From positions 144,434 through 208,433 of IMG/VR virus record IMGVR_UViG_3300012983_000001: a stretch of 64,000 bases of DNA; one strand, written 5' to 3'. The DNA is from a virus. Its lineage: Duplodnaviria > Caudoviricetes. The notes under the pieces are model-generated. The model saw only the letters and a list, made by a program, of their open reading frames with translations. It did no database searches and had not been told where the DNA came from. Each line of letters begins with the position of its first letter. The first letter of the stretch is position 1. The position numbers were made by a program, and so were the translations under genes. Below are positions 6,400 to 64,000 of the stretch, piece after piece.

Positions 6400-7829
6400 T
6401 ACATCACCCCAGTCACTGTTTGTGCAATAATATCATCAAGCTCTTGCTTTGTGTATTTCTCAAAGTCATCTTGATATGTCGAGTACGGTGCCAATTTAGA
6501 ACCAGTAGAACCTTGCTCAATTCTAATAAGAATTCTGTTGTTGGTATAAACAGCCACTGGTACATATACCATTGAAGTAATCTCTTGATATTGAACTAAA
6601 GCTCCAGGAGTAGTATCTGATAAGTATAATATTGTTGTATCTTTACAGTCTAATGTGGTCCATGGTATTGCGCCTGTAGTTACAAGAGTAAAAGTGTCTT
6701 TATCATATACATCAGCTATAATACCAACTGGTGGGTTGAAATCCGTAACAATAGCAATCGCTCTTTCATACTTGCCATCGGACGTTAAACAGACAACATC
6801 ATGTTTGTGCAATCCGTGATTTTCTTGTACTACATCTTCTGGCGTCAGTAATTTATCGGGCGTAACATTTAAGTAATCAAAACGAAATACCGTTCGTCCA
6901 AATATATCTCTGTCTATATTAGTATTCTTTTTGTTTTCCTGAAAGACAGCTTCAATTGTTATATCATAACCAGGAGAAGTAATATTTAGCACTTCGTTAT
7001 ATGCTTGATATTGTAAATCGTAATCTTGACATGCCCACTCTTGAAATAATTTCAATGCGTTGTATGGTTTCTGTAATTCGATTCTAACAGGATATCGTGT
7101 ACATGCACGATATAACTGTGTATCAAACGAATTCTTTACAGTGATTTCGTATACATCACTAATACGTTCAATAGTAGCATAGCCATCAATACGGTCTGTA
7201 TCACTGCCTTCTTGTGTAAATGCATCGTATAGACACGGATTACAGAATCCAGAACCACCACCTGCATTAAATGAAGTGGAATCCGAACTGTATCCACCAT
7301 ACCATCCGCCACCGCCAGCAGGCTTATTATCAACACCATTTTGTCCTTGACCAAAAGCATATCCTTTGGATTGAGTTGCTCTTCTGTTACCGCGTCGCTC
7401 TGGTCCAGCCTCTAATCCGCCACCATGACCATAGTTTTCTGGATTTGTTTTTCCTGCACCACCGCCACCACCTGCAACTAAAAGAACATCAAGTTCATGT
7501 TCAGAATATCCTGACAATGTACCATGATTACTAATGGCAATATGTGTAGCTCCACCACCACCATTATTATTTGGACTACTTCCACCACCATTATATCCAT
7601 TGGTAGGGTCTGACGATGGACCGCCAGCCTTACCAACGCATACATATAACGTGACATTATGCTGAGCTAAATAAAATCCTTCGCTATAACCACCATTGGA
7701 CCGAGAATATGGATTATTGCCATTATTCGTACCGCCTTTGGCTCCATAGCAAGTTATTTTATATAACCCAGCAGTTAAATGGATTTCTTGTACTTGATTC
7801 ATATAATTGAACTCATACATGAATATCAC
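6399..7829 (-). CDS. Glycine-rich-domain virion protein
   Basis: YKITCYGAKGG...LYVCVG...GYNGGG...GGGGATHIA...LLVAGGGGGAG...GGGGWYGG (ALK/LTK-type glycine-rich domain of phage tail proteins) plus the shared beta domain. Confidence 0.6.
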   Translation of the reverse strand: MIFMYEFNYMNQVQEIHLTAGLYKITCYGAKGGTNNGNNPYSRSNGGYSEGFYLAQHNVTLYVCVGKAGGPSSDPTNGYNGGGSSPNNNGGGGATHIAISNHGTLSGYSEHELDVLLVAGGGGGAGKTNPENYGHGGGLEAGPERRGNRRATQSKGYAFGQGQNGVDNKPAGGGGWYGGYSSDSTSFNAGGGSGFCNPCLYDAFTQEGSDTDRIDGYATIERISDVYEITVKNSFDTQLYRACTRYPVRIELQKPYNALKLFQEWACQDYDLQYQAYNEVLNITSPGYDITIEAVFQENKKNTNIDRDIFGRTVFRFDYLNVTPDKLLTPEDVVQENHGLHKHDVVCLTSDGKYERAIAIVTDFNPPVGIIADVYDKDTFTLVTTGAIPWTTLDCKDTTILYLSDTTPGALVQYQEITSMVYVPVAVYTNNRILIRIEQGSTGSKLAPYSTYQDDFEKYTKQELDDIIAQTVTGVM

Positions 7830-9104
7830 CTACAGTTTTAATAAGAATGAAAAGTCATAATAAAGCTGCCAATATGTTGTGTTATATGCTAAATTAGACC
7901 AGTTAGCAATGGTATCTCTCATATAGCTACCCATGCACCAATATTGCTCTCCATTGATTTCATAGTTAGCGTTCCATTTTTGCAATCCAGACGGTGCGTA
8001 ATATACATTATCAAAATCAATAAAACCATTGATACATATTGGTTTGGTTAACAGAGTGTTATCTGACCTTGCAAGACTATATAAACCAAAGCAATATGGC
8101 TTTGTTGTAGCGTATAGATTAGAAAATAAACAATATGGGTTGATATTTATAGCACCTGTAATGTCTTTACCACCAGGATAAAATAAATCATATAGTGGCT
8201 CAATATGGTGACCAAAATAAGTAAATGCATTTAAGTTCGGCCACTGGCTTGCCTCGTTTGTATGGGATTTTTCTCCTTCATTTAAGTTTCCGTTTACTAC
8301 ATGTGTAATAGCATCTAAAGAAATAGTATTAAAATTATACCATCTTGAATTTACTGCACCACCTAATGTCGTAAAAACAACGTTTTTTTGATTGATATCT
8401 TGTCCTTGCATAACAAATAATAATGGTATTTCATTACCATTCCAGTTTTCATAGCTAATGTGTAAGAAATTTGTATTGTATCGTATTTTAATAGTATAAA
8501 TGTATTGTAATTTATTTTGTGTTGTAATAGAAGAATATGCGCCCTTACTAAAACTACGTATGGAACTCATTTTAGAAGTAGTATTTGATTGTATATTTGT
8601 TTGATTATTGTAACCATAACTAGGACTACTCCACATCGTAATGTGCATACTAATACTACGATTACAGCTCCATCCTGGTGTAACAATTTTACCTTTACGA
8701 TACACTACAGGAATCGACAGGCCACATTGAATATTAGTCGATGCTCCTGATGCTGCATTATCAAATAAGTTTAATGCTCTTATGTAAAAAGTAGTATCAA
8801 AAATTGTAAATGAAAAATTACTATCTTCAAATTGAATAGATAAAATTTTATCATCTAAGGCGCTAAGTATTTGCTTAAGGTCTTGATAAAATATACTAGT
8901 ACCTTCTGTATGCAAAAAGATGTTTGTAAATGTACCCCAACCGCTAGTGTTTACATATCCTGCTACATGCGTAATTTTAGCAATACTTTTTAATGTACCT
9001 GTATTGTCTTCTACTGCATACTCAGGATAATTCAGGACACTGGGAGTATCCAATAATGTATAACTATCTGCTGTATGGTTATAAGTTTTTTGAATAAATG
9101 GCAT
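7830..9104 (-). CDS. Hypothetical protein, possible receptor-binding tail component
   Basis: 424 aa, Asn/Tyr/Thr-rich, AT-rich DNA within the fibre cluster. Confidence 0.35.
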   Translation of the reverse strand: MPFIQKTYNHTADSYTLLDTPSVLNYPEYAVEDNTGTLKSIAKITHVAGYVNTSGWGTFTNIFLHTEGTSIFYQDLKQILSALDDKILSIQFEDSNFSFTIFDTTFYIRALNLFDNAASGASTNIQCGLSIPVVYRKGKIVTPGWSCNRSISMHITMWSSPSYGYNNQTNIQSNTTSKMSSIRSFSKGAYSSITTQNKLQYIYTIKIRYNTNFLHISYENWNGNEIPLLFVMQGQDINQKNVVFTTLGGAVNSRWYNFNTISLDAITHVVNGNLNEGEKSHTNEASQWPNLNAFTYFGHHIEPLYDLFYPGGKDITGAININPYCLFSNLYATTKPYCFGLYSLARSDNTLLTKPICINGFIDFDNVYYAPSGLQKWNANYEINGEQYWCMGSYMRDTIANWSNLAYNTTYWQLYYDFSFLLKL

Positions 9105-40643: not shown

Positions 40644-40994
40644 TATAAATTACCTCCTGTGTCTAAAGTTATATCACATTTTGTCACAAAAAGCAAATTT
40701 CACTCTATTATTCGGACCGTAGGTCCGTTTTGTTATGGTTGTATCGGGCCGTAGGCCCGCTTAACCATGGGCGCAAAAGAAACACTAATCGTTGCAACAG
40801 ATATATAGTCGCAAAATAAAACCCACCAGTTGCTTTACATTTTGGTACATGATACTCGAACAGATGTTCGGCCAGTATAGGGTAAATTTATATATATATT
40901 TTTGGGGGGAACCTGCTTTTAATCTTGTATGATGTTCTTTAGTTCGATACCCCACCCTATGTGTGGAAGACAATAAAGATTGGAGGAATTGGTT

Positions 40995-41464: not shown

Positions 41465-41656
41465 ATGAATAACCGCATAACCCTGTCTCATGATGACATG
41501 ATGCTTATCGTATCTGCATTAGCTGCATATCCAGGTGTAGTTAAGAAAATGCATCACAATGATGATTCCATGGGTGACATTACCCGTGCTACGAACCAGT
41601 GTGTCGAAATCGGTATGAAGATTATTGACATGATGGATGCAATCGAGCAGCAGTAG
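41465..41656 (+). CDS. Hypothetical early protein
   Basis: RBS AAAGGAGG, 63 aa. Confidence 0.6.
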   Translation: MNNRITLSHDDMMLIVSALAAYPGVVKKMHHNDDSMGDITRATNQCVEIGMKIIDMMDAIEQQ

Positions 41657-41660
41657 TGTA

Positions 41661-41687
41661 TGTCCTGAGCATGACAATAAAAGGCTC
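41661..41687 (+). ncRNA. Post-stop-codon H-type pseudoknot motif, copy 1
   Basis: TGTC-CT-GAGC-AT-GACA-ATAAAAG-GCTC. Confidence 0.6.
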
Positions 41688-41751
41688 TCTCCTCTGGGGG
41701 AGACTAAATAGGCAGTTAGGCCCAGAGCGTTAGTAGAAATACTAGGTCTGC
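41688..41751 (+). ncRNA. Pistol self-cleaving ribozyme
   Basis: P1 TCTCC/GGAGA with loop TCTGGG; CTAAATAG; P2 GCAG/CTGC; pseudoknot partner CCCAGA; conserved GCGT; P3 TAGTA-GAAA-TACTA; cleavage G41746/U41747. Confidence 0.9.
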
Positions 41752-41807
41752 ACACAACAAAAAATAAAATAAAGACCCATGTGTAGAGGGCAGATTGGAG
41801 AAACCAT

Positions 41808-42077
41808 ATGAGTTATCAGATGAACAACCAGGAAAACGAAGCTATGAGACAGTACAGCTACAGAGAACGTAGTCGTATAGCAAGAGAGAAAAAGAGACAG
41901 GAATTTATCTCTAACTTTATTGCTGTTGTAGTAGGTGTACTCATGATGCTTGCATTTGCGTATGCATTCGTATATGCACTTGCTAATGAACCGTTTAATG
42001 CACCTGTTGCTAATCCAGCGTACATAAACGAGTATGAAACACCAGATGTACCAAGATACATCTACCCTGAAGAGTAG
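41808..42077 (+). CDS. Small single-pass membrane protein
   Basis: Basic N-terminus then FIAVVVGVLMMLAFAYAFVYALA; flanked by two ribozymes. Confidence 0.65.
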   Translation: MSYQMNNQENEAMRQYSYRERSRIAREKKRQEFISNFIAVVVGVLMMLAFAYAFVYALANEPFNAPVANPAYINEYETPDVPRYIYPEE

Positions 42078-42163
42078 TACTACATGCAGAGTGGCATAGG
42101 GACTGTACATCCCTATGTTAATGCACTATCCCATATAGGGATACTGGTCACAAGTCCAGGTGC
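42077..42163 (+). ncRNA. Twister self-cleaving ribozyme (permuted, type P5)
   Basis: ATGCAGAGTG; closed P1 GCATAGGGA/TCCCTATGT; U/AAUGC cleavage site 42119/42120; P3 TATCCC/GGGATA; P4 CTGG-TCACAAGT-CCAG; pseudoknots CAC/GTG and AC/GT. Confidence 0.85.
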
Positions 42164-42190
42164 AAATATAATCCTAAGGAGGATAAGGTT

Positions 42191-42865
42191 ATGAAGATTA
42201 AGAATCTGTATTATGGCATTATCGGTCTTATTGCTTACTACAAGCAGACCAAGGCAAACAAGGTTAATCTTAAGGCTACTAAAGCTAATAAGGTTGACGT
42301 AGTAACTGTTGATGATAGGGAATTAAGTATTCACTACATCCCTGACATGAATAAGCGTGGTGTTGCATATGGAGCAATCTTTGTTTTCCCACATCTTGAC
42401 AAAAAGACATTCATCGGTGTGGATGACAAATTCTATGCATTACCGCAGGAATTACAACAGGCAGTGATTTACCATGAGGTAGGGCATTATGCACATGGTC
42501 ACTTTAGTAACAAGGGGTTCCGCTATATCTGGCAACAGTGTGTACAGTTAGGCAAGATTGCTGTTGCTTCTGAAGACCAGAAGGCTAACCTGTTATACGA
42601 GTTTACCATGATGACTCGTAATGACAACGAGGAGTATGAAGCAGATGCCTATGCAGTTAATAAGGTAGGAGCTCATGCTGTTGCTGCTTTGCTCTTAACG
42701 TTCTATAGCTTGTACCCTAGTGAGGAACTTGCTATCAGATATCAAAAGGTTACTGGTGAAGCAATCGAAACAAGTAGTGCTTTTCTGGAGCTTAAGAAAC
42801 AAATGGCACAACAATTTACTTCTATCTTTAAGGATGCTGAAGTAGTATCCATTGAGACTTTATAA
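42191..42865 (+). CDS. Zinc metallopeptidase-like protein (M48-type HExxH)
   Basis: AVIYHEVGHYAHGH...EYEADAYA. Confidence 0.7.
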   Translation: MKIKNLYYGIIGLIAYYKQTKANKVNLKATKANKVDVVTVDDRELSIHYIPDMNKRGVAYGAIFVFPHLDKKTFIGVDDKFYALPQELQQAVIYHEVGHYAHGHFSNKGFRYIWQQCVQLGKIAVASEDQKANLLYEFTMMTRNDNEEYEADAYAVNKVGAHAVAALLLTFYSLYPSEELAIRYQKVTGEAIETSSAFLELKKQMAQQFTSIFKDAEVVSIETL

Positions 42866-42897
42866 ACCTAGATTACATTAAGGAAAGGATGGTAGTT

Positions 42898-43518
42898 ATG
42901 ATGAACACTACAACAAACAAGGTATTGGAGAAACTAGTAAACGCAGGCGCACTGGAAAGAATCGCAAAGGACTTAAAGCTAGACAAGGTTCCAACTATTG
43001 TATATGACGGAGAAGGTGATTACGTCATGGCAGCGTCTGGACAAGTATGGGCTCGTGGTAATCTGTTCCATGAAACAGTTACAAAGACTGAAAGTGACTA
43101 TGTTATTCATGTCAACACCAAGGCCTTAGCTGATACTCAGAGACAGTATTGTATGCTGACTTTAAACCCTCAGATTATGACAGACATTACACTGATATTA
43201 CTGAAACACGAATGCCGTCATATCTGGCAATATCAGAATCAGTTCACGGTTGGTGATGTTCGCGAAAAATTCTCTTTTCGTTTAGAAGCTCATGGAGATT
43301 CCAAGGTAGAGCGTGATGCAAACGAGTACGCAGTACAGAAAAGCAAAGGCAGACGCTATATCTTAGCTCTTCATGCAAAAATGTTACAAGAGAAAAACCC
43401 ATTCTCATTTGGACCTTCTACAGAAGAGATACATTTAAACCATGAGGTAATGCGTGCGTATTTTCCTATTGCACATTACATAATCAATAAACTTACAGGA
43501 GGTAAGAAATATGTATAA
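42898..43518 (+). CDS. Zincin-like metallopeptidase (HExxH)
   Basis: LLKHECRHIWQY...VERDANEYA; RBS GAAAGGATGGT. Confidence 0.6.
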   Translation: MMNTTTNKVLEKLVNAGALERIAKDLKLDKVPTIVYDGEGDYVMAASGQVWARGNLFHETVTKTESDYVIHVNTKALADTQRQYCMLTLNPQIMTDITLILLKHECRHIWQYQNQFTVGDVREKFSFRLEAHGDSKVERDANEYAVQKSKGRRYILALHAKMLQEKNPFSFGPSTEEIHLNHEVMRAYFPIAHYIINKLTGGKKYV

Positions 43519-43825
43519 GATTAGTCAAATTGTACAGGACTGTGTCAACGGTTGCACTGCAAACAATCTCATCGAAGACTACATGCATTTCATGATTAAC
43601 TATTATGTTAATACTGAACATGGTCAGGGTACCAAGTATCGTTGTTTCGTATACAACATACAAGACTTAGAGGTCAATCTCTATCATATTATTAGAGAAA
43701 ATATCTCTCCTACTACTGATGTTGTTATTACAGACATCACCGTAAAAGACAGTGGCGAAATCATTCGTGTGAACCCTAAGAATTATTCTTACAGCATGGA
43801 CTATTTCATGGATATGCTTCGTTAA
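43511..43825 (+). CDS. Hypothetical early protein
   Basis: RBS AGGAGGT, 104 aa. Confidence 0.6.
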   Translation: MYKISQIVQDCVNGCTANNLIEDYMHFMINYYVNTEHGQGTKYRCFVYNIQDLEVNLYHIIRENISPTTDVVITDITVKDSGEIIRVNPKNYSYSMDYFMDMLR

Positions 43826-43913
43826 TCATCTTCTATTCTTTGAGGGCATCACAATGAGTGGTGTCCTTTCTAGTGTAGAAGATACACTAATTCACTATAA
43901 GGAGGTGAGCAAT

Positions 43914-44066
43914 ATGACTACTACTTATACCAAGCACACACCAACAAAAGAACCTAAGAAAACATATAATAACCATGCTAGTTTTGGTTTTTATCTTAGA
44001 ACTGGTGTGCCATACAATCCTCGTATGAGCGAGAGAGAAAAGAAGGCTTTAATAAGCCGCAGATAG
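43914..44066 (+). CDS. Small basic hypothetical protein (50 aa)
   Basis: Start moved to MTTTYT behind TAAGGAGGTGA. Confidence 0.55.
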   Translation: MTTTYTKHTPTKEPKKTYNNHASFGFYLRTGVPYNPRMSEREKKALISRR

Positions 44067-44070
44067 CACT

Positions 44071-44100
44071 GGGTCCTGGAGTATGACCTAAAACTGCTTC
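44071..44100 (+). ncRNA. Post-stop-codon H-type pseudoknot motif, copy 2
   Basis: GGGTC-CT-GGAGT-AT-GACCT-AAAACT-GCTTC. Confidence 0.6.
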
Positions 44101-44143
44101 TGTTACCAGTAAACATCCTAACATGGATTGGAGGTGATACGCC

Positions 44144-44320
44144 ATGGATGTTGATATTACACTGTCTAGTATAGCTGTGACTTATATTAAGCATGGACTT
44201 ATGAGACAAGAAGAACTGGAAGGACATAAAGACCTTCTAAAAGACTGCTTGAATAGACGCGCGATTCAAGTATTTAACAACGGCCACGAGTACGATACTC
44301 GCAAAGACTATTTTCTCTAA
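44144..44320 (+). CDS. Small hypothetical protein (58 aa, MDVDITLSS...)
   Basis: RBS GGAGGTGAT; open frame to TAA at 44320; below the ORF-track cutoff. Confidence 0.6.
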   Translation: MDVDITLSSIAVTYIKHGLMRQEELEGHKDLLKDCLNRRAIQVFNNGHEYDTRKDYFL

Positions 44321-44336
44321 GAAAGAGGTGTAGGTC

Positions 44337-45407
44337 ATGGAAGTATTAAATGTATACGTTGGCAAAGAACAGGTAAAGTTCGATTTAGGTAATCTATTGG
44401 GTGTTGATGTAGAGATATGGGATAAGCTTACATATCAGACTGCAAAGAAACATCAAGATTTAATTCCTGCGATTGAGATATGTATCGAGGATTGCCTTGG
44501 TACTGCGGTAAATATCGTAGATGAGGTTAGTTTTAAACTAGCCATTGCTGATTTAGTGAACATTATCCAAGGTGATAATGCAATAAATATTAAGGAGGAT
44601 ACTATTATGATGAACAACACTACTAACCAGAACATGGAAATGGCAATGGAAGAGATGCAGAAGAAGGCAGGCATCGGAGAATTACTCAAAGAAACAAAGG
44701 ATGCAGTTATCCACGGAGTAATTTCTAAGACACACAAGACTAAGGAACAGTACGTACAGCAGGTTGATGAATCTGCTAACGTGGTTAAGGGTGCAATGGT
44801 TGTTACTCTTGACAAGATGTCCGCAGTGCTTGGTTACAATGCTCTAAAGGAAAGTATCTTAGGCATCATTGAAGCAGGTACTTGTAATGGCAAGACTGAT
44901 TTATTCGCAATGGCCGAGGAATGCAGAAAGCGTATTGACCTTGAGGTTGAGACACTTCTTGCATGGGGTAGCGAAGAAGATTTCAGAAAGGCTGCACAGT
45001 TAAAAGCTTTATCTAAAGACCAGAGAGGCAAGTCTATCTTTGAAGCTTTAGTATCCATGTTAATTTGGATTGCTAAATGGGTAGCTAAGACACTCAGAAA
45101 ATGGTTCCAGGTAGACAATGAGAAATCCATTATTGGTGCTCTTTGCCGTGCTCTTTCTGGTTTTGCTGCTGTGGTACGTGAAGGCGTTAAGTTAGTATGG
45201 CACACTGCAAAGTTTGGTGTAAGCTTTGTAATTGCTGGCGCTATTAAGCTTGGCGTGTGGATTATCAATACATTTAAGACTTTCTGTGAAGGCATCAAAG
45301 GATGGTTTAACAAGAAGAATGAAATGATTGATGATGAGGAAGACCAGTTCTTCTTTGTTGCAGATGAAGAGGGCAATCTTGTAATTCCTGACGAAGACGA
45401 AGAATAA
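44337..45407 (+). CDS. Helical protein with amphipathic/hydrophobic C-terminal half and acidic tail
   Basis: 356 aa; possible internal start at MMNNTT behind AAGGAGG. Confidence 0.55.
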   Translation: MEVLNVYVGKEQVKFDLGNLLGVDVEIWDKLTYQTAKKHQDLIPAIEICIEDCLGTAVNIVDEVSFKLAIADLVNIIQGDNAINIKEDTIMMNNTTNQNMEMAMEEMQKKAGIGELLKETKDAVIHGVISKTHKTKEQYVQQVDESANVVKGAMVVTLDKMSAVLGYNALKESILGIIEAGTCNGKTDLFAMAEECRKRIDLEVETLLAWGSEEDFRKAAQLKALSKDQRGKSIFEALVSMLIWIAKWVAKTLRKWFQVDNEKSIIGALCRALSGFAAVVREGVKLVWHTAKFGVSFVIAGAIKLGVWIINTFKTFCEGIKGWFNKKNEMIDDEEDQFFFVADEEGNLVIPDEDEE

Positions 45408-45417
45408 TCGTCACTAC

Positions 45418-45459
45418 TAGTCCAATGGGTGTGTAAGACTATAAACTGCTATCACCCAT
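45418..45459 (+). ncRNA. Post-stop-codon H-type pseudoknot motif, copy 3 (extended)
   Basis: TAGTC-CAATGGGTGTGTAA-GACTA-TAAACT-GCTAT-CACCCAT. Confidence 0.6.
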
Positions 45460-45565
45460 AACTACTATACATATACATGAACTATACTCCCTGGTGTTAC
45501 TTGAATACGTTTACGGGTTATCTTTAACACCAGGGGGTATATGTATATATCCCACCTTAATGGTT

Positions 45566-45621
45566 TGCTGTCGTAGCGGTAAAAGTCCGTTACCTGATGA
45601 TTGGCATGAGCCGAAACAGCA
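45566..45621 (+). ncRNA. Hammerhead ribozyme (type III)
   Basis: Stem III TGCTG/CAGCA; GUC triplet (cut after 45572); stem I GTAGCGG/CCGTTAC; CTGATGA; UU insert; stem II GGC-ATGA-GCC; GAAA. Confidence 0.85.
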
Positions 45622-45719
45622 TCAGAGATTCTCACGCGGGGATGGTAAGGATAACATCGTTAAGACTTCCAAACACTATAAACTATTTTATGGGTTGATA
45701 ACCCAGAAAGGAGTATAGC

Positions 45720-46592
45720 ATGAAACAGAAAACAACTACTAGTCATGCAAAGAAGGCGACTACTACAAGTAACGCCAAGACCGCAACCAACAACCAGAAC
45801 ACTACACAGGAGGTAGCTACTATGAAGAACGCAAACGTACACGCAACTGATTATTTATCCAAGGATAAGATTCGTGAAGAACTTAAAGTGCTCGGTATTG
45901 AGTTATCCAACTCTAAGTTCAAGAACACCAAGAGAGAAGTATTACTTGAGATGCTTGAAGCTAAGAAGGCAGAGACTACTACTGCTAATGCAACTAAGCC
46001 TGCTATGCCAATTGCACCTGTATCTACTGACATTCCTGTTGGTGATTTAGAGATTACCAAAGACAATGCTCCTCAGGAGATTCCAGTAGAACAGGAACAA
46101 CCGAAAAAGAGCACCGTACAGATTCTCTACGATGTAGTTGCTAACTGCTGTTACGTACAGTATTACAGCAAGAAGCAGGTTGCTAAGAACTATGTCAGCG
46201 ATTATATGTTGAAGTCCTGTATTAACCATGTACTTCACGGCAAGTACTCCAAGGAAAAGAATGGACAGGATAATACATTCACGGATATTCAGCAGAAGCA
46301 GACCGAGTTCATTAAGGATAAGTTAATCCAGGCTGGTTTTGTTACCGAACATAAGGGTACAGGTTATATCATCAAGGCAAGACTCATGGCATGGTACTAC
46401 GAGGGAGCTCTGAAGCTTCATGTTGTTTACAGATTCCGCTACGAAGATAAGTCCAAGGGCTATGTAGACTACAAGGTAGACTTTGCTAAGAACGAGCTGC
46501 TTAATCTCCGTGACAACAAGGTTACCAAGCTGGATGATGCAGGCTGGGCTAAGGTTGATGCAACTCTCAACTTCAACAGAACTATGAAATAA
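45720..46592 (+). CDS. Hypothetical protein with a possible HeH/Rho-N-like nucleic-acid-binding motif
   Basis: LSKDKIREELKVLGIEL...TKREVLLEML; alternative start MKNANV behind GGAGGT. Confidence 0.5.
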   Translation: MKQKTTTSHAKKATTTSNAKTATNNQNTTQEVATMKNANVHATDYLSKDKIREELKVLGIELSNSKFKNTKREVLLEMLEAKKAETTTANATKPAMPIAPVSTDIPVGDLEITKDNAPQEIPVEQEQPKKSTVQILYDVVANCCYVQYYSKKQVAKNYVSDYMLKSCINHVLHGKYSKEKNGQDNTFTDIQQKQTEFIKDKLIQAGFVTEHKGTGYIIKARLMAWYYEGALKLHVVYRFRYEDKSKGYVDYKVDFAKNELLNLRDNKVTKLDDAGWAKVDATLNFNRTMK

Positions 46593-46685: not shown

Positions 46686-46754
46686 CCATAATACGATGAT
46701 AATACAACAGCGCCCCGTTAGGGGCGCTGACTCCAAGAAAGGATGGTGCTTTAT

Positions 46755-48738: not shown

Positions 48739-51700
48739 ATGATGAATGGTACTACAAACTACGAAGATTTAAAGGTTGCTGAACTTAAAGACTTATGCCG
48801 TAAGGCTGGCATTAAGGGTTATTCTAAGATGCGTAAGTCTGAACTGATTGATGCTCTTAACAATTCCAAGGAACTGAAGAAAGTCATCCACAATGAGGCT
48901 AAGGACTTTGCCCATACCGAACTGGGAAGAGACTTCAACAAGGCTGTAATGTTCTGGAAGAGAGTGAACAACTTAAAGCGTATGGAGACTGACGATTACT
49001 ATCGTATGATTGATGCGTGGAAGCTCCTGGTTGGTTTACTGGGACTGGTTGATGATGATATTAAGCACATCAACATCACTGACAACTTACAGAAGACTGC
49101 TCAGGCTATCTCCAGCATTTTCTGTGTTAATGAGGTTGATTTCAGCGCTCAGACTGATGAAGAAGCTCGTGACTATATCCTGGAAACATTGAACAGCTTC
49201 AGTTTATCCGTGTTTTCCAAGAAGCTCACTAAGGACAGCGATACAATCATTAAGATGTCCATGGAGCATATTGATTTTACCAAGGATGCTCTGATATTTG
49301 ACAGCCGTGAGGCACGCAAGTTCATCGGTGACGACGCAAAGAACCACAAAGGTGACATGCGTATTGTTGAAACTGCTGAGGATGCTATTACCCGTATGTT
49401 ACAGTCCCGCGAGAAGCCGTTGTCTTCCATCACTGTATTCATGGGACAGACATCCCAGGATGAGGTTGCCATGGCTCAGATTTTGGGCATGAAGCGTCGT
49501 GTATTCTCTGAAGGTTTCACTGATGTGGCTACTGGCAAACACTACATGTTTGCATTCCAGAATCCATCCAGCTGTAGAAAGGCTAACTTCATGTTCGTTG
49601 AAGCTAATAGCTGGGATGAAGTGTTTGCTTTATGGCTGGAAATCACTGGTCTCAAGACATGGAGCGACTTCGAGAAGGCATTCTATGATGAGAACGGCAA
49701 TGTTAACATGGCTAAGTTACTGGCTAGAGTATCTACTAGAGGTTCTAACAGTTTCTCTGTTGACAAGACCGCTCCAGACCTTGCAGATGTTATCCGTAAC
49801 TTCAGACCATACTATTGCAAGGATACCAAAACAGAGGTATTCAAGGACTACAAGACCCTTAAGGGACCAGGTCTCATGGATTTGGTAACTGGTCAGTCCC
49901 GTAAGCTTACCGATGCGGATGGTCAGGGTATTGTATCCTTCCACGCAGCGGCAATCATTGCCGCTGCTCTGTGCCGTATCTCCCGCTATGAGCTGGCTGA
50001 ATTCCAGGATGAATTCGCCAAGGCTAAGAACGATATCCACAATGTCAAGCCAGGTAGCCGTTTGGAATCTATCATCAAGAAGATTCCTGCCGCATTCCAG
50101 ATTCGCCATGGCGAAAAGAAGGGAATGCTTGTACGCTGGAACTTAGAAGCTATCGACACTACTAAGGATTACGATGTAATCATTCCAGACTCCGTCAGAA
50201 AGTTCATCGGTGGCGAATGGTCTGACTATCCGTTAGAGGTATGTAACTTCCTTAAGCCAAAGGGAGACTGGGCATACCTTAATCCGCAGTTCATCAGTGC
50301 ATTAGGCTGGGAAGACCCTAATGCGTTAATTCCTATCGCTAATTACTGGGCTGAATACGAAAGAGAATCCATTGTCAACATGGCAAAGGCTCAGCAGTTC
50401 CACGGCATCATCAAGAGTGTTGATGATGAGGACAACAAGACCAATGCTGGTCATCTCAATGCCGCATTGCGTGTATCCCCAGACTTACTGGATGATTTCC
50501 AGATTCTGAAATGGCGTAAGGAACAGTACAACACATTCAATTCCAACATGACTATCGGCAGAATGATGGTTAGAGGTCAGTATACCTATATGATATTCGA
50601 CCCTGCATACCAGATTAACAAGTACTTCAACCTTGAGCTTCCTTGTCTGGCAAGTGGTGAGTTCTATCACAACGGTAAGGAGTGTAATGCCGCTTTATTC
50701 CGTAGTCCGCTGATTGCTCCGTATGAGGCTAAGAAGGTTACTCTTGTGAACAACGAAGAGTATAAGTATCTTGCTGATACCGTAATCTTTAATGGCTTTG
50801 ATGGTGCCGCAGACGATATGGGAGGCGGCGACCATGACGGGGACACCTGTGAAATTGTAACCGATGACAATTTCTTTGGTAAGATTATCGTTGATGGTGT
50901 GCGTGACATTCCGTATGTTGTATGGGAGAAAGGTCAGGATGCTCAGAAGGTTAAGTTCTCTGTAGCTACACTCATTGAACATCTCACCAATACTGCCGTA
51001 CAGTCCAGAGTTGGCGTTATCACCAACTATGCTACCTGTGCTATGGATATTGCTAATCATCTTGTAGCATCTGTACACTTTGCAAAGAGACTAGGTTGTC
51101 AGTCTATAACCATGCTTCATCCACGCTCCTTTGGCAAGGGCTTAGGCTGGAATTACATTCCAAACAAACAGCCAGATGGCAATAGTGGATACACTTTCTT
51201 GATGAAAGGCTATGTTGAATGCCAGCTTACACGCCAGGGATACAACAAGCATTACACTGATATTAAGTCTCAGAGATTCCATGTGCGTAATGTTGAGCCA
51301 TGCGATGTAATCTTCAGCAATGAGGGTAATATCATCGGCACATATACATTCGAGCAAGTTGAGGATATTGCAAAGTATTTCTTAGGTCTTGTAGAGATTT
51401 TAAGAATCTTACAGGGCAGAGAGATTGACGGTGCAAAGACTGGCGTCTATGCTGAGGGTGTTTCTGGTAAAGATTTCATCGAAGCTGTTAAGGTTGTATT
51501 TGCACCGAAGCACTTACTGACCAGACAGGATACTCTGGAAAGAAGTATCTCCACTGCCGCTATGCTGAATCAGTATACTTCCTTATCTCCTTTGGGTAGA
51601 TTACATGATTACTCTGTTAAGGTTACCGAGGATATCACCGACAAGCTGGCAAATGGTTCCAATAAGATTTTCTTGCTTCAGTCTTTATTGAGCGAGGAAG

Positions 51701-52578
51701 AGGTTACTGCAATTACTAAGACACAGTACATGATGCCTAACAACAAGGTTTCCACTCTTGTTGCTTATCTTACAGAGCGTAAGCAGGCATACAACACCAA
51801 TATGTACAAGCTCAAAGAGCATTACAGCGGTGAGGAATTAACCGATGTGCGTCAGGCTATTAAGGACATTGAGCTTTATGGTACTAAGCTGGATGATGGC
51901 TCCCGTGCAAACGATGGCTTATACAGCCTTGCTGAAGCAATGGGTATTGCTCCAGAGTTAGTTGCTGTTGCTAGTTACATTGCAACATATACCAAGAATA
52001 GCAAACCTTCCGATGGTTTAAGCTATGCATGGTTAATGTTTGATGAGTTACTGTCTGTATTCTCCCGTAACAACAAGAAGTTTGAGTTGTTCCGTCTGCC
52101 TGCATCTGTTGAAAGCGTATGCATCATTGACAAGGCAATGTATGTCAATGGCAACAAGTACATCAACATCAATGCTTATGACCAGGAGAATGTTCCGATT
52201 CAGGTTATCAACGGAAGACCTTATGCATTTGTGCATAAGACCGTTGACAACACTGTTGCACAGCGTAAGGGTAACATTACCATCGGTAATAGATACATCA
52301 TCGGTGTTTATGGTTTCAAATACCATACAGCACAGACTCCTGCTGGTTGGCTGAATACAGTCAACAACAATGGTCTGATGTTTGACATCGTGCTGGTTGA
52401 TGGAAGAGTTGTTACCCGTGTAAACAATGAATCTGTCGGTGCTCTGATGCCTGTTGGTGCAGATTTTGACCTTAACAACGCTAAGGTTCGTGTCATCAAC
52501 GATATCAACAATCCTGTAAAGGAAACCAATGCTAGTCTCACCAACATCATCGTTGAAGTTGTTGGTGAAGCTGACTAA
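48739..52578 (+). CDS. Single-subunit two-barrel RNA polymerase (YonO/QDE-1 RdRP-like family) with N-terminal Rho-N/HeH domain
   Basis: DADGQG, FQIRHGEKKG, LFRSP, catalytic GGGDHDGD (50830-50844), IDGAKTG; N-terminal LKVAELKDLCRKAGIKGYSKMRKSELIDAL; start moved behind GAAAGGATGGT. Confidence 0.88.
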   Translation: MMNGTTNYEDLKVAELKDLCRKAGIKGYSKMRKSELIDALNNSKELKKVIHNEAKDFAHTELGRDFNKAVMFWKRVNNLKRMETDDYYRMIDAWKLLVGLLGLVDDDIKHINITDNLQKTAQAISSIFCVNEVDFSAQTDEEARDYILETLNSFSLSVFSKKLTKDSDTIIKMSMEHIDFTKDALIFDSREARKFIGDDAKNHKGDMRIVETAEDAITRMLQSREKPLSSITVFMGQTSQDEVAMAQILGMKRRVFSEGFTDVATGKHYMFAFQNPSSCRKANFMFVEANSWDEVFALWLEITGLKTWSDFEKAFYDENGNVNMAKLLARVSTRGSNSFSVDKTAPDLADVIRNFRPYYCKDTKTEVFKDYKTLKGPGLMDLVTGQSRKLTDADGQGIVSFHAAAIIAAALCRISRYELAEFQDEFAKAKNDIHNVKPGSRLESIIKKIPAAFQIRHGEKKGMLVRWNLEAIDTTKDYDVIIPDSVRKFIGGEWSDYPLEVCNFLKPKGDWAYLNPQFISALGWEDPNALIPIANYWAEYERESIVNMAKAQQFHGIIKSVDDEDNKTNAGHLNAALRVSPDLLDDFQILKWRKEQYNTFNSNMTIGRMMVRGQYTYMIFDPAYQINKYFNLELPCLASGEFYHNGKECNAALFRSPLIAPYEAKKVTLVNNEEYKYLADTVIFNGFDGAADDMGGGDHDGDTCEIVTDDNFFGKIIVDGVRDIPYVVWEKGQDAQKVKFSVATLIEHLTNTAVQSRVGVITNYATCAMDIANHLVASVHFAKRLGCQSITMLHPRSFGKGLGWNYIPNKQPDGNSGYTFLMKGYVECQLTRQGYNKHYTDIKSQRFHVRNVEPCDVIFSNEGNIIGTYTFEQVEDIAKYFLGLVEILRILQGREIDGAKTGVYAEGVSGKDFIEAVKVVFAPKHLLTRQDTLERSISTAAMLNQYTSLSPLGRLHDYSVKVTEDITDKLANGSNKIFLLQSLLSEEEVTAITKTQYMMPNNKVSTLVAYLTERKQAYNTNMYKLKEHYSGEELTDVRQAIKDIELYGTKLDDGSRANDGLYSLAEAMGIAPELVAVASYIATYTKNSKPSDGLSYAWLMFDELLSVFSRNNKKFELFRLPASVESVCIIDKAMYVNGNKYININAYDQENVPIQVINGRPYAFVHKTVDNTVAQRKGNITIGNRYIIGVYGFKYHTAQTPAGWLNTVNNNGLMFDIVLVDGRVVTRVNNESVGALMPVGADFDLNNAKVRVINDINNPVKETNASLTNIIVEVVGEAD

Positions 52579-60165: not shown

Positions 60166-60238
60166 CGAGGTGTAGGACAGTTGGCAGTCCGCTAGTTTTG
60201 GGAACTAGACGTCGCAGGTTCGAGCCCTGTCACCTCGA
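60166..60238 (+). tRNA. tRNA-Pro(UGG)
   Basis: Cloverleaf, acceptor CGAGGTG/CACCTCG, anticodon loop TTTGGGA, no encoded CCA. Confidence 0.9.
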
Positions 60239-60270
60239 CTCTCCCCCTGTCACAGACAGGGGGATTAAAC

Positions 60271-60343
60271 GCCTCAATAGCACAGTTGGCAGTGCGGCTG
60301 ATTTGTAATCAGCAGGTCGGCGGTTCGAGCCCGTCTTGGGGCT
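60271..60343 (+). tRNA. tRNA-Thr(UGU)
   Basis: Acceptor GCCTCAA/TTGGGGC, anticodon loop TTTGTAA. Confidence 0.9.
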
Positions 60344-60785
60344 GATGTTTATTCGTAGGCAGTAATGTTTAACTTACAAGGTTCTAAGTAGCAGGGGACT
60401 AAGTAAGTGCGAGTAAACAAGTTCTGCTATGCGTTACATATTTGTTCTAACATGCCAGAAGTTTCAGTACGCAAACTTAAAGAAATTAGCACAAGGGCAT
60501 CGTCGGTTTACGTCTACGTATGGCGTACCCAGTTCATCATTCTTCCTGGGTAACATGGTATTGGCAATGATATTGAATCAGCGTACAAGCCGAAGATTAA
60601 GCTGTAGTGTGGTGTCAAAGCTACATTACGGAATCAGGTAGGGTATTTATACCAGACCTAACATATTCATGAGTTGAGACGAAGGTAATCCAACAGTGAA
60701 CCGCAGTACAGACGGTGGGCCTAGTTGCTCGTAATACAAAGTTGTATCGTGCGGGAACAACGCATGTATCTCATGATTATGGTTT

Positions 60786-60871
60786 GGAGTAATGGCCGAG
60801 TGGTTTAAGGCGCTGGTCTTGAAAACCAGTGATTCCGAAAGGGACCGTAAGTTCGAATCTTACTTACTCCG
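60786..60871 (+). tRNA. tRNA-Ser(UGA)
   Basis: Acceptor GGAGTAA/TTACTCC, loop CTTGAAA, long variable arm, G73. Confidence 0.9.
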
Positions 60872-61240
60872 CTAAGGTTAAGCATAGGTAATCTTAAAAT
60901 CAACACACCTTGGTAGGTGGCAAACTTATCCACAATCACACCGCCTATGCAGTTTTTCGTGTACTTAACACGAGTTTTACTTTATGTGTACATAGAGTAA
61001 GACAACAGAAGGAAAACTGTAAACCGCTAAGAAGAAAGGTCTTAGCTGTAACAAAACCTTAATCGTAAGGATTCATGAGCTATGGGTTGACATCCATAGA
61101 GCTTACGTCTCTGAGAACACCAGCGATGGCTAATCTGCTTTTTCTTGTTAGCATGGAAAAATAAGAGAGTTTTACTGAATAGTTATCTCAAATAAACTTA
61201 TTTAGGGTGGTAACCTCACGTCAAAGAAATAACCAAATTC

Positions 61241-61328
61241 GGAGACTTACTCAAGTGGCTGAAGAGGAGGACTTGCTAAGTCTTTAGTGTCCTAAGGGGC
61301 AGCGAAGGTTCGAACCCTTCAGTCTCCG
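61241..61328 (+). tRNA. tRNA-Ser(GCU)
   Basis: Acceptor GGAGACT/AGTCTCC, loop TTGCTAA, long variable arm, G73. Confidence 0.9.
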
Positions 61329-61594
61329 CTGGGTTGAAGTGCTAAACCAGCTATGTAATACGCACGCCTGTAAAAGACGCCAGGAGGTTGAGGACAATGA
61401 GTATGGAAGTGGCCTTTCGAGGCCTAACGCGAAAGTTCGACAAGAGTACCGAAACATATGCCTGACCAGTTAGATGTTGCGCCAGTAGGAAGAAGTTACA
61501 TAGATATGTTGATACTACGAAGAAGTATCTGCTTGGAAAACGAATAAAGTGGTCATTCCCGTTTCTATCATTTCTGTACGTTAACAGAATTTAA

Positions 61595-61689
61595 CGGAAG
61601 GTAGCTCAGAGGCCAGAGCTTCTTGCCTTAGAACGGGTAACTGCAAGTGATAACACCGTTGGTCGCGAGTTCGAATCTCGCCCTTCCGA
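61595..61689 (+). ncRNA. tRNA-like RNA 1 (anticodon arm replaced by a ~40-nt pseudoknot)
   Basis: Acceptor CGGAAGG/CCTTCCG, D arm GCTC/GAGC, T arm GCGAG-TTCGAAT-CTCGC; no canonical anticodon arm. Confidence 0.75.
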
Positions 61690-61910
61690 TTTGACCTATA
61701 CGGTCAGGTACATGTCTATGAGCTCAGAAATGACATGTACTATTCAGAAAGAGTAGAGCCGAAATAGCATGGAACTTGCTAAAAGTTAAACGGATGCCGT
61801 GGTTACTACGAGAGTGTAACAAATCAGAGTTGTTGGCTTGATGTTCCCTATTCCGTGATTAAGTTCATATGTTAGGTCAAGAGTCAAGCGGGTACATGTG
61901 GTGGGATTTT

Positions 61911-61984
61911 GGACCATTAGCTCAGTTGGTTAGAGCGCTCGGCTCATAACCGAGTGGCCTTAGGTTCGAGCCCTAAATGGTCCA
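61911..61984 (+). tRNA. tRNA(CAU), most likely Ile2 (lysidine type)
   Basis: Acceptor GGACCAT/ATGGTCC, loop CTCATAA; body resembles Firmicutes tRNA-Ile2 more than initiator or elongator Met. Confidence 0.85.
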
Positions 61985-62159
61985 CGCATAGCAATCTGGC
62001 ACTATACCATGGTTAGTGAAGCTACTCCGAGATGCACCAGAGGACGTAAGGAGGCCGAGTTCGTCGGTGCAGACAGTAGGTGAAATGTCTAACGAACTAT
62101 CACAAGTGGCTGGGGCGGTGAAACCCCAGCTGCGAATCATTACCTAACGATAATATTAT

Positions 62160-62267
62160 GGAGAATTAGCTCAGTTGGCTAGAGCCCTGTGAGGAATTTC
62201 GATTGGGTGAGCAATATGCTCCTAGACACCAGAGGAAATAGCCCCAGTTCAAATCTGGGATTCTCCA
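62160..62267 (+). ncRNA. tRNA-like RNA 2 (57-nt domain in place of anticodon/variable arms)
   Basis: Acceptor GGAGAAT/ATTCTCC, D arm GCTC-AGTTGGCTA-GAGC, T arm CCCAG-TTCAAAT-CTGGG. Confidence 0.75.
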
Positions 62268-62622
62268 TTTTGCGCCTGGTTGGAGACTGTTTCAGTCGGC
62301 ATAGTCCCTTGTTTGACCATTGTTCATTCATACTATGTACTGGATAACAGGTACTGCTAATTGAACCAGATATGAGACACATATCGAAAACGAGCGGGCA
62401 GTAAGTAGCATGTCTAGTCAACATGTGAAAAAAAGCAGAGAACACGTCAAATCATTGCTGTTTCGAGTTGAGGACTGTCAATCCCCCAGTAAGCAACAAC
62501 GAAGAGATGAAAGTGTATAAGTTGATGACAAGACTTACGTTGGTGTAACCCCAACTCTCTGTCTTTGGTGTACCAATGGTCATTGAGGGCGAGCCTATGG
62601 CTCGTCTGGTACGCCTAACTAG

Positions 62623-62769
62623 CGGGAGTGGGCTGTGGCAAGCAGCCGCTTGTGAGCGGTGAGATTTAAAATATGGAGTTGTGTTATGTGCGATATTCGC
62701 TAAGTATCACATCGACTATTACTATGGTGAAAACCCATCCTTCATTGCGGTTCGATTCCGCGCTCCCGA
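62623..62769 (+). ncRNA. tRNA-like RNA 3 (~100-nt insert)
   Basis: Acceptor CGGGAGT/GCTCCCG, D-like arm GGCTG-TGGCAAG-CAGCC, T arm GCGG-TTCGATT-CCGC. Confidence 0.6.
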
Positions 62770-63097
62770 CTTATGCCTAACGGCATTACAATGAATATGG
62801 AAAATCCATATCATCGACAAACTTTTATACTTCCCAACCCCATCCCCAAGACTACTTGAGCGAACCACGACATTTACATGGTCTGTTGTGGCTGGTAGAA
62901 TGACCTAGCTCAGCTCCCTATTGTGCTTTAATATATGCATAACATTGTTGTGTATGTATTAAAATGCAATATGCATTCAATTAAAGAAAGGAGAGTGGTG
63001 AACTCTATGATGATATTTGTATATGATGTTATTCTGGGTTATATTGCACTGCTCTTCTTGAGTGACAGCATTGCATTCAAATGTAAACTGTCAGGAG

Positions 63098-63288
63098 GTG
63101 CGCCAGAAAACACAAGCAACGGATTTGTTTGTTTGAGGCGGTTGAGAGTGCGCCATTCGGATTACTGGCGACCAGAACCCAGATAGCCCATGAAGGCTAT
63201 GTTGGGCGGATTTTGAATATTGGTCGAAACCGACACTCTCGATGGTGGTAATCCACTGAAACCCAGCAACGGTTGGATTGGGCGTCAC
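63098..63288 (+). ncRNA. Unassigned multi-stem structured RNA
   Basis: Closing GTGCGCC/GGCGTCAC, several nested helices, possible GGATTAC/GTAATCC pseudoknot. Confidence 0.5.
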
Positions 63289-63590
63289 TATTTTGATTTT
63301 ATAAACTAGATGAAAAGTGTACGCGCACAACCTTATCTCCTAATGGTATTAACATATATCATATCCCAGAAGGAAAACTGGTTATCAAACCCGCTAAGAT
63401 ATTACAAAAATTGAAGTCACTTAGATGGTTAGTAATAAAGAACATGCAGTAAACAAATAGTATATTAAGAATAACTGCAAATGCGTACACAAAAAATGAA
63501 ATAAGCACAACGATGTGCAACGATATCAAGGCGACGGGAACGCCTGCTAAGTCCCGCCGCTTTCTGCTTAATACGATAATTTGTTAATAT

Positions 63591-63633
63591 GGCGGCTGGA
63601 GGGCTTGACATCCAGCCGCTGTTTTTGTATAAT
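63591..63633 (+). promoter_or_regulatory. Terminator hairpin overlapping a consensus sigmaA promoter
   Basis: GGCGGCTGGA/TCCAGCCGCT plus T tract; TTGACA (63605-10) in the loop, 17 bp, TGTATAAT (-10 at 63628-33). Confidence 0.75.
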
Positions 63634-63648
63634 TGAAACAATTCATTT

Positions 63649-63731
63649 GGGTAGATAGGTAAGTGGTTAAAACAAGCGGACTGTAACTCCGTCGCCTCAC
63701 GGCTTCGCTAGTTCGAATCTAGCTCTGCCCA
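63649..63731 (+). tRNA. tRNA-Tyr(GUA)
   Basis: Acceptor GGGTAGA/TCTGCCC, loop CTGTAAC, long variable arm; weak D stem. Confidence 0.85.
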
Positions 63732-63930
63732 CTACACCGAGGGACAAGAAGAAGAAAAGGGATGACAGCAAATTTCCGTCTGTCGAAGGGATAAGGGCAA
63801 TTCATGTTACCGCTTATCGTTGTAGGTGTAATATTACAGAGTGTATTGAGCGAGTATTCTGTTAAGGAAGAAAGTCAATCTTAAATGTGAAGTGCCTATT
63901 GAAGAGGGCCAAGTAGCAGCTTTGTATTAT

Positions 63931-64000
63931 AGAATATTAGCTTAACGGTAAAGCACACGACTGATAATCGTGGTCAGCAGTTCGACTCTGCTATGTTCTA
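63931..64000 (+). tRNA. tRNA-Ile(GAU)
   Basis: Acceptor AGAATAT/ATGTTCT, loop CTGATAA, short variable loop; ends at the window edge. Confidence 0.8.

Follow-up and report, generated by a model that had tools for sequence, protein, structure and literature searches.

Three classes of self-cleaving ribozyme in one operon of a large uncultured phage, with candidate protective structures on both sides of the predicted cuts

Clusters of self-cleaving ribozymes in phage operons, including clusters of mixed class, have been known since 2011-2015. Perreault et al. 2011 described clustered hammerheads that flank prophage genes and proposed that they process transcripts to gene-length mRNAs; these clusters cut polycistronic RNAs of about 2 kb in vitro and in E. 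coli, and spliced or circular products were sought and none was found (PMC3088659). Twister, pistol, twister sister, and hatchet came from ribozyme-rich phage neighbourhoods (Roth 2014 and Weinberg 2015, as summarised in PMC4604425, PMC5737381, and PMC10085705), and the pistol class, as told in PMC4604425 and PMC10085705, was discovered by way of the mutual closeness of differing ribozyme classes and their closeness to phage genes. The purpose of these ribozymes in bacteria and phages is acknowledged as an open question (PMC6765202; PMC10085705), and differential stability after processing has been suggested, not shown (PMC6765202). Here we describe a clean example of such a cluster in a stretch of 64,000 nucleotides (nt), called the window below, which is the final 64 kb (positions 144,434 to 208,433) of the 208,433-base virus record IMGVR_UViG_3300012983_000001. 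Several sense-strand intergenic ribozymes, a pistol, a twister, and a hammerhead, stand within a few kb among small phage genes, and by its sequence the locus is a ribozyme-punctuated phage operon. Coordinates are those of the window, and the operon's genes and RNA elements lie on its + strand.

By comparison with the clusters of Perreault and collaborators, the arrangement is similar: several intergenic ribozymes flank single genes or small blocks, mostly of unknown phage genes of variable identity, and the processing of a long transcript proposed there is proposed again for the window. The window differs in combining three classes, in belonging to a 208-kb phage that encodes an RNA polymerase of its own and in which no tyrosine integrase is detectable, and in the structures seen beside the new ends, which were undescribed there. 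With the neighbourhoods of Roth and Weinberg, as far as the above summaries present them, the locus has in common that ribozymes of several classes lie close together and beside phage genes; the strongest link given there is with Mu-like phage genes, whereas here the phage is large and uncultured and a LexA-type box precedes the operon. The present analysis adds that box, the comparison of orthologous spacers with and without ribozymes, a candidate protection of both ends, and a hammerhead subfamily missed by Rfam.

The pistol ribozyme (41688-41751) matched RF02679 of Rfam with 44.7 bits (gathering score 34.5). Its alignment contained P1, P2, P3, the pseudoknot between the P1 loop and J2/3, the conserved core, and the G-U cut site, with the cut predicted at G41746/U41747. 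The pseudoknot is a perfect helix of 6 base pairs (bp) and is compensated in the related loci L026 and L028. The twister ribozyme, of type P5 (42085-42159), matched RF02684 with 47.1 bits (gathering score 37.6); P1, P2, P4, the pseudoknots T1 and T2, and the U-A cut site (U42119/A42120) were all present in the alignment, where T1 and T2 depart from the consensus yet stay paired through compensated changes. Both ribozymes are intergenic, and their self-cleavage would be expected from family membership. In the remaining 144 kb of the genome no further ribozyme reached the Rfam gathering score. The ribozyme spacers are not an assembly artefact, because identical spacers recur in further public contigs (five for the pistol, seven for the twister, and two for the hammerhead), one of which may be the source of the window.

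The hammerhead ribozyme (45566-45621, predicted cut C45572/G45573) was recognized by a structural descriptor and by covariation, and was the sole match of the type I/III descriptor on both strands of the whole 208-kb genome. It is of type III, with a stem III of 6 bp, a GUC triplet, a stem I of 7 bp, an intact core, and a stem II of 3 bp preceded by an inserted UU (45601-45602). The core elements tested (CUGANGA and GAAA, an NUH triplet, and the A15.1-U16.1 pair) were present and were invariant across homologues. Ten homologues, drawn from relatives of the phage (L023, L030, and L032) and from unrelated viruses and metagenome-assembled genomes (MAGs), were aligned; 96.9% of the cells pair and 9 of the 16 pairs change on both sides, in all three stems. 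None of 500 shuffles matched the observed covariation, and slid controls gave 33-48% pairing. The core nucleotides, stems, and pseudoknots of the pistol (RF02679), twister-P5 (RF02684), and hammerhead (RF00008) families are all present here. An initial annotation, made from the sequence, had named three complete sense-strand ribozymes of these classes in intergenic spacers, with cuts at 41746/7, 42119/20, and 45572/3; the Rfam, descriptor, and covariation results bear this out, and the cut sites agree with the alignments from which we read them. The covariance models that it had pointed to gave a divided result: the pistol and the twister-P5 stood above gathering, and the Rfam search of the window returned no hammerhead at E ≤ 5 or even at E ≤ 10.

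This miss reflects the Rfam model and not the structural class of the element. A homologue, the hammerhead of L032, scored 25.6 bits against RF00008, below the gathering score of 48.5. Stem II does not follow the core directly, as an insert-free junction would require; the insert measures 1 nt in most copies, 2 in the window, and 3 in L032, and because it is routinely present in the subfamily, the sequences argue that the hammerhead tolerates it. In alignments of known hammerheads the inserts at the stem II junction do not exceed 1-2 nt (PMC10085705), and that of the window is inside this range. In L044 (5040-5134) a hammerhead of the same subfamily carries a two-hairpin insert of 28 nt between the core and stem II, which exceeds it. 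Loops I and II are near-invariant across the subfamily, which would fit a tertiary contact between them, although this is only suggestive. The window copy belongs to a common hammerhead subfamily, marked by fixed loops and by extra nucleotides ahead of stem II, that escapes Rfam.

The sequences upstream of the cuts are also structured. A small H-type pseudoknot of class A (41661-41687) follows the stop codon of a gene of 63 amino acids (aa) and abuts the pistol, and it also precedes the pistols of L026, L028, and L030. A longer pseudoknot, of class B (45418-45459), follows the stop of the 356-aa gene and is kept in L023, L030, L032, L033, L034, and L054, with or without a hammerhead after it; between it and the window hammerhead there is a long stem-loop (45467-45549), conserved with changes in relatives. 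A second class A pseudoknot (44072-44100), with orthologous copies in L023 and L034, follows a stop codon, and no ribozyme comes after it; a long interrupted stem-loop at 43828-43883, with similar stems in L023, L032, L034, and L035, is a putative RNase III-type site or stabiliser. The initial annotation had mentioned pseudoknots or long RNase III-like stems in other spacers, and both kinds are present. The gene-end pseudoknots had no Rfam match in the searches run.

In L026, L028, and L030 an H-type pseudoknot directly abuts a pistol, a twister-P1, and a hammerhead, and for eight ribozymes of the clade (the pistol and hammerhead of the window and those of L023, L026, L028, L030, and L032) the same spacer contains a pseudoknot before the ribozyme. 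In the case of the window twister, the upstream piece would end at its 3′ side in the P1 hairpin of the ribozyme itself. A strict pseudoknot descriptor was used, its loose version being too noisy. In an independent set of 14 hammerheads, picked by the core alone in unrelated viruses and MAGs, 13 had a structure ending a few bases before the cut; nine had a strong hairpin (z ≤ -2) and four the same pseudoknot (0.003 expected per window of sequence). It was also possible to see, in L023 (4500-4746) and L030 (5625-5811), a class A pseudoknot followed by more multi-stem structure without Rfam match. A scan for a class C pseudoknot gave one match, within a probable coding region, which was taken as chance.

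On the downstream side, every cleavage product would begin within or beside a stem, with 0-2 bases left free at the 5′ end. For hammerhead-III and twister-P1 this is so by construction, their products starting within a stem or two bases before one. In the case of the pistol, whose product would come off unpaired by itself, a strand at 41780-41787 is complementary to the first 8 nt of the 3′ product and is a candidate for a 5′ stem of 8 bp formed after cleavage (shuffle p = 0.0007). The corresponding complement extends over 7 bp in L030 (p = 0.05) and reaches 10 bp in L026 and L028 (p = 0.002), with compensatory changes. Between L030 and L026 three compensated pairs of this stem differ, and they also track the P2 partner; the 3′ strand of P2 covaries both with its partner in the ribozyme and with the downstream strand. 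For the twister-P5, a possible replacement strand (42160-42164) would re-pair 42122-42126 after cleavage; it appears in the predicted fold but was not significant (p about 0.1). An opening of the ribosome-binding site coupled to pistol cleavage was considered and rejected, since the energy changes at four loci (-1.4, +0.4, +1.0, and +0.3 kcal/mol) had no consistent sign.

The comparison among relatives covered 13 syntenic loci (the window, L009, L013, L023, L025, L026, L028, L030, L032, L033, L034, L035, and L054/L055). Three ribozymes are found in the window, four in L030 (a twister-P1 below gathering with E = 5e-9, a pistol, and two hammerheads), one hammerhead each in L023 and L032, and one pistol each in L026 and L028. 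Ahead of the 290-aa gene, four loci have a hammerhead in the spacer, four (L025, L028, L033, and L054) a different, covarying pseudoknot, and the rest neither. This third pseudoknot type, class C, which occupies the place of the hammerhead (L033 about 7200-7250, L025 and L028 about 7930-7980, and L054 about 2585-2630), has conserved loop words, a covarying second stem, and no Rfam match. In L030 a hammerhead, and not a twister, leads a weakly related peptidase gene; judged from these sequences, one ribozyme class is exchanged for another before related genes in the clade, as the initial annotation had thought worth looking for in related phages. Such mixing is common beyond the clade as well: in L038 a hammerhead is accompanied by a pistol, and in both L040 and L046 by two twister-sisters. 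In L046, an unrelated virus, these three are joined by a pseudoknot and then a twister-like sequence, all in 1.3 kb (23-1302). Profile searches of viral and genome contigs with the alignment of the 356-aa protein brought up no additional loci, and pattern scans of IMG/VR for the pistol subtype of the window found none.

Of the genes between these elements, two code for metallopeptidase-like proteins with HExxH motifs and one for a small membrane protein, and the others have no assigned function; the description of the operon as host-takeover genes in the initial annotation is unsupported. Between the pistol and the twister lies an 89-aa gene (41808-42077) with one hydrophobic segment, whose family occurs in most relatives, both behind a pistol and where there is none. 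It is followed by a 224-aa metallopeptidase-like gene (42191-42865; M48/M56-like, from Pfam Peptidase_M48 at E = 0.001, below the cut-off, and Atlas) and by a second of 206 aa (42898-43518; DUF6782 at E = 9e-5, below the cut-off). The 356-aa open reading frame (44337-45407) has another start at 44607, again with a strong ribosome-binding site, which may yield a shorter nested product. Downstream of the hammerhead, the 290-aa gene (45720-46592) has homologues, and its match in PHROG, to a family of Arc-like repressors, is weak (E = 0.001). A hairpin just before its ribosome-binding site (45692-45706), kept in most relatives and usually with the loop UGAUGA, is a possible protein-binding or autoregulatory site. 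After the region of this gene there is a GC-rich hairpin (46708-46729), conserved in relatives, which here has a T-run on the - strand only.

Upstream of the operon, a palindrome (40857-40870) matches the LexA/DinR box consensus of Firmicutes (PMC4551915). A strict copy occurs just once in the genome, against 0.09 expected, and 9 of 12 clade loci have the palindrome in the corresponding position, with fixed arms and a variable centre. The box hints at an operon whose expression would be SOS-gated rather than immediate, and a phage-encoded repressor with a similar site may be the binder instead. In all close relatives the palindrome is followed by a highly conserved leader of about 90 bases with an AT-alternating tract, a G-run, and a T-loop-like word (40857-40960 in the window, palindrome included); L030 and L035 retain the leader without the palindrome. 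It may be a promoter, an RNA leader, or a genome-end signal.

The ends of the record share a 123-base overlap and on this ground we take the phage genome to be complete and circularly assembled. The GC skew switches sign at about 40.7 kb of the window, and from 40995 on the + strand genes run toward a phage RNA polymerase gene (48742-52578, 1278 aa; RdRP-like/YonO-like, PF05183 at E = 5.5e-20), whose only named relative in a cultured phage is the predicted RNA polymerase of Bacillus phage 0305phi8-36, a distant match. The position of the operon, with the first genes after the strand switch and upstream of this polymerase, makes it plausible that it is early, as had been annotated. We infer a host among the Bacillota solely from the LexA-type box and the strong ribosome-binding sites, present at 121 of 180 long open reading frames. 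Searches of the whole phage genome found no tyrosine integrase, ParA-type ATPase, or RtcB. A cluster of at least 13 distinct tRNA genes spans the assembly join (window 60166-64000 and genome 54-7669), the tRNA at 61595-61689 having an enlarged anticodon loop in the Rfam alignment; the relative L009 additionally has a tmRNA.

Taking into account what is observed, namely, the folds, their positions, the covariation, and the patchy distribution, we infer a mode of action whose steps would be a single transcript, cleavage in vivo, nuclease protection, and an outcome in expression. The whole operon would be transcribed as one message, and the three ribozymes, active as their families predict, would cut it constitutively, each piece carrying one gene or a few. 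The spacers may then act as interchangeable cut-and-cap cassettes. The pseudoknot or hairpin upstream of each cut would then protect the upstream piece at its new 3′ end, and the downstream piece would begin with at most two unpaired bases, closed by its own stem (hammerhead III and twister-P1) or by a spare strand (pistol and perhaps twister-P5). In this way mRNA lifetime and translation would be tuned gene by gene. Segmentation of the mRNA, which the initial annotation had also proposed, is the best reading of the locus and, as a hypothesis for such clusters, is already published (PMC3088659; PMC6765202). That constitutive cutting into small units is combined with protection of the new ends by structure, giving gene-specific mRNA lifetimes, seems to us somewhat more probable than the contrary. 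In its favour, the ribozymes are all sense-strand, intergenic, and limited to one operon in the genome, and no strong + strand terminator was found in the operon interior; independent hammerheads have upstream structure, the P2 strand of the pistol covaries doubly, clusters of this kind do cleave (PMC3088659), and 5′ hairpins stabilise mRNA in B. subtilis (PMC3997798). A more elaborate version is put forward tentatively: a modular, RNA-only cassette made of a gene-end pseudoknot as a barrier to 3′ exonucleases, a ribozyme of any class, and a strand exchange sealing the 5′ end would serve in this clade to tune an operon that is gated by SOS (LexA) and leads to the RNA polymerase.

The initial annotation had assigned the stabilisation to 5′-OH chemistry acting on host-takeover mRNAs, and the variety of folds to the avoidance of recombining repeats. 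RNase J and RNase Y do favour 5′-monophosphate ends (PMC3997798), and no long direct repeats were found in the operon; nevertheless, we consider this version very improbable. The 5′-OH chemistry is weak as a stabiliser in a host of Firmicutes type because RNase J1 rapidly degrades the 5′-OH product of glmS (PMC3997798; PMC11780869), the avoidance of repeats is undermined by duplicates of one class (two hammerheads in L030 and the paired twister-sisters of L040 and L046) and by the class A pseudoknot, reused up to four times in L030, and no gene carries a takeover annotation. Any stabilisation would come more plausibly from structure at the new ends. The glmS precedent also suggests the opposite effect, that is, a decay trigger in which the 5′-OH end admits RNase J1 and shortens the life of the downstream gene's message, giving a brief pulse of expression; the LexA-type box would suit such an inducible, switch-like operon. 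The glmS ribozyme of Firmicutes resembles those of the window in cleaving itself in cis within an mRNA and leaving a 5′-OH end, in an RNase J-type host such as we suppose here, but it is ligand-dependent and destabilising, whereas the window ribozymes have no evident ligand domain and their product ends are structured. Considering that every product begins in or next to a stem and that structure upstream of the cut is near universal, a decay trigger appears quite unlikely.

Another possibility is that mobile gene cassettes, passing from phage to phage, carry the ribozymes along as largely neutral passengers, which insulate 5′ leaders and whose mix of classes is only a sample from a common pool. 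Their patchy presence, the shuffled gene order, the class swaps before related genes, the same hammerhead subfamily in unrelated viruses and MAGs, and the mixed clusters of L038, L040, and L046 fit this explanation, which we nonetheless regard as unlikely: every ribozyme present retains an intact core and compensated stems, implying that activity is selected for, and the explanation accounts for the distribution, not the function, being compatible with cutting and end protection. It could also be proposed that the pistol and the twister excise a 373-nt RNA with the 89-aa gene, which a host RtcB-type ligase circularises, the ends being an RtcB substrate pair (PMC8782182). The chance of this is very small, given that the phage genome has no RtcB, that flanking by two ribozymes is unconserved (L026 and L028 have only the pistol and L034 neither), and that Perreault et al. 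found no spliced or circular products.

Several observations weigh against the cutting and capping of gene ends as we propose it. Ribozymes occur at 6 of the 13 clade loci and 7 have none, and ribozyme-free loci carry close orthologues of the flanking genes: L034 keeps, in order, those of the 89-aa gene (75% identity) and of the peptidase (51%) without the pistol and with a long stem replacing the twister, and L025 has the gene that follows the L026 pistol, with the pistol missing. For these reasons the ribozymes and associated elements are, as far as the sequences tell, modular and dispensable in the clade and not essential. Of the pseudoknots, around half are not followed by a ribozyme. Their stems show many pair types and 159 of 162 pairings, a circular count, as the sequences were chosen by pairing, and the four viruses with a pseudoknot and a hammerhead may be kin. 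For L030 and L026, the 5′ stem of the pistol product did not come out as the dominant predicted fold in all of the tests, and the strand at 41780-41787 could equally inhibit the pistol or merely aid product release.

The proposal makes a specific prediction that can be tested, namely, that the structures on either side of the cut protect both products, and the clade supplies natural pairs of orthologous spacers with and without a ribozyme. If true, the modular cut-and-cap cassette would give the self-cleaving ribozymes of bacteria and phages a concrete, testable purpose.

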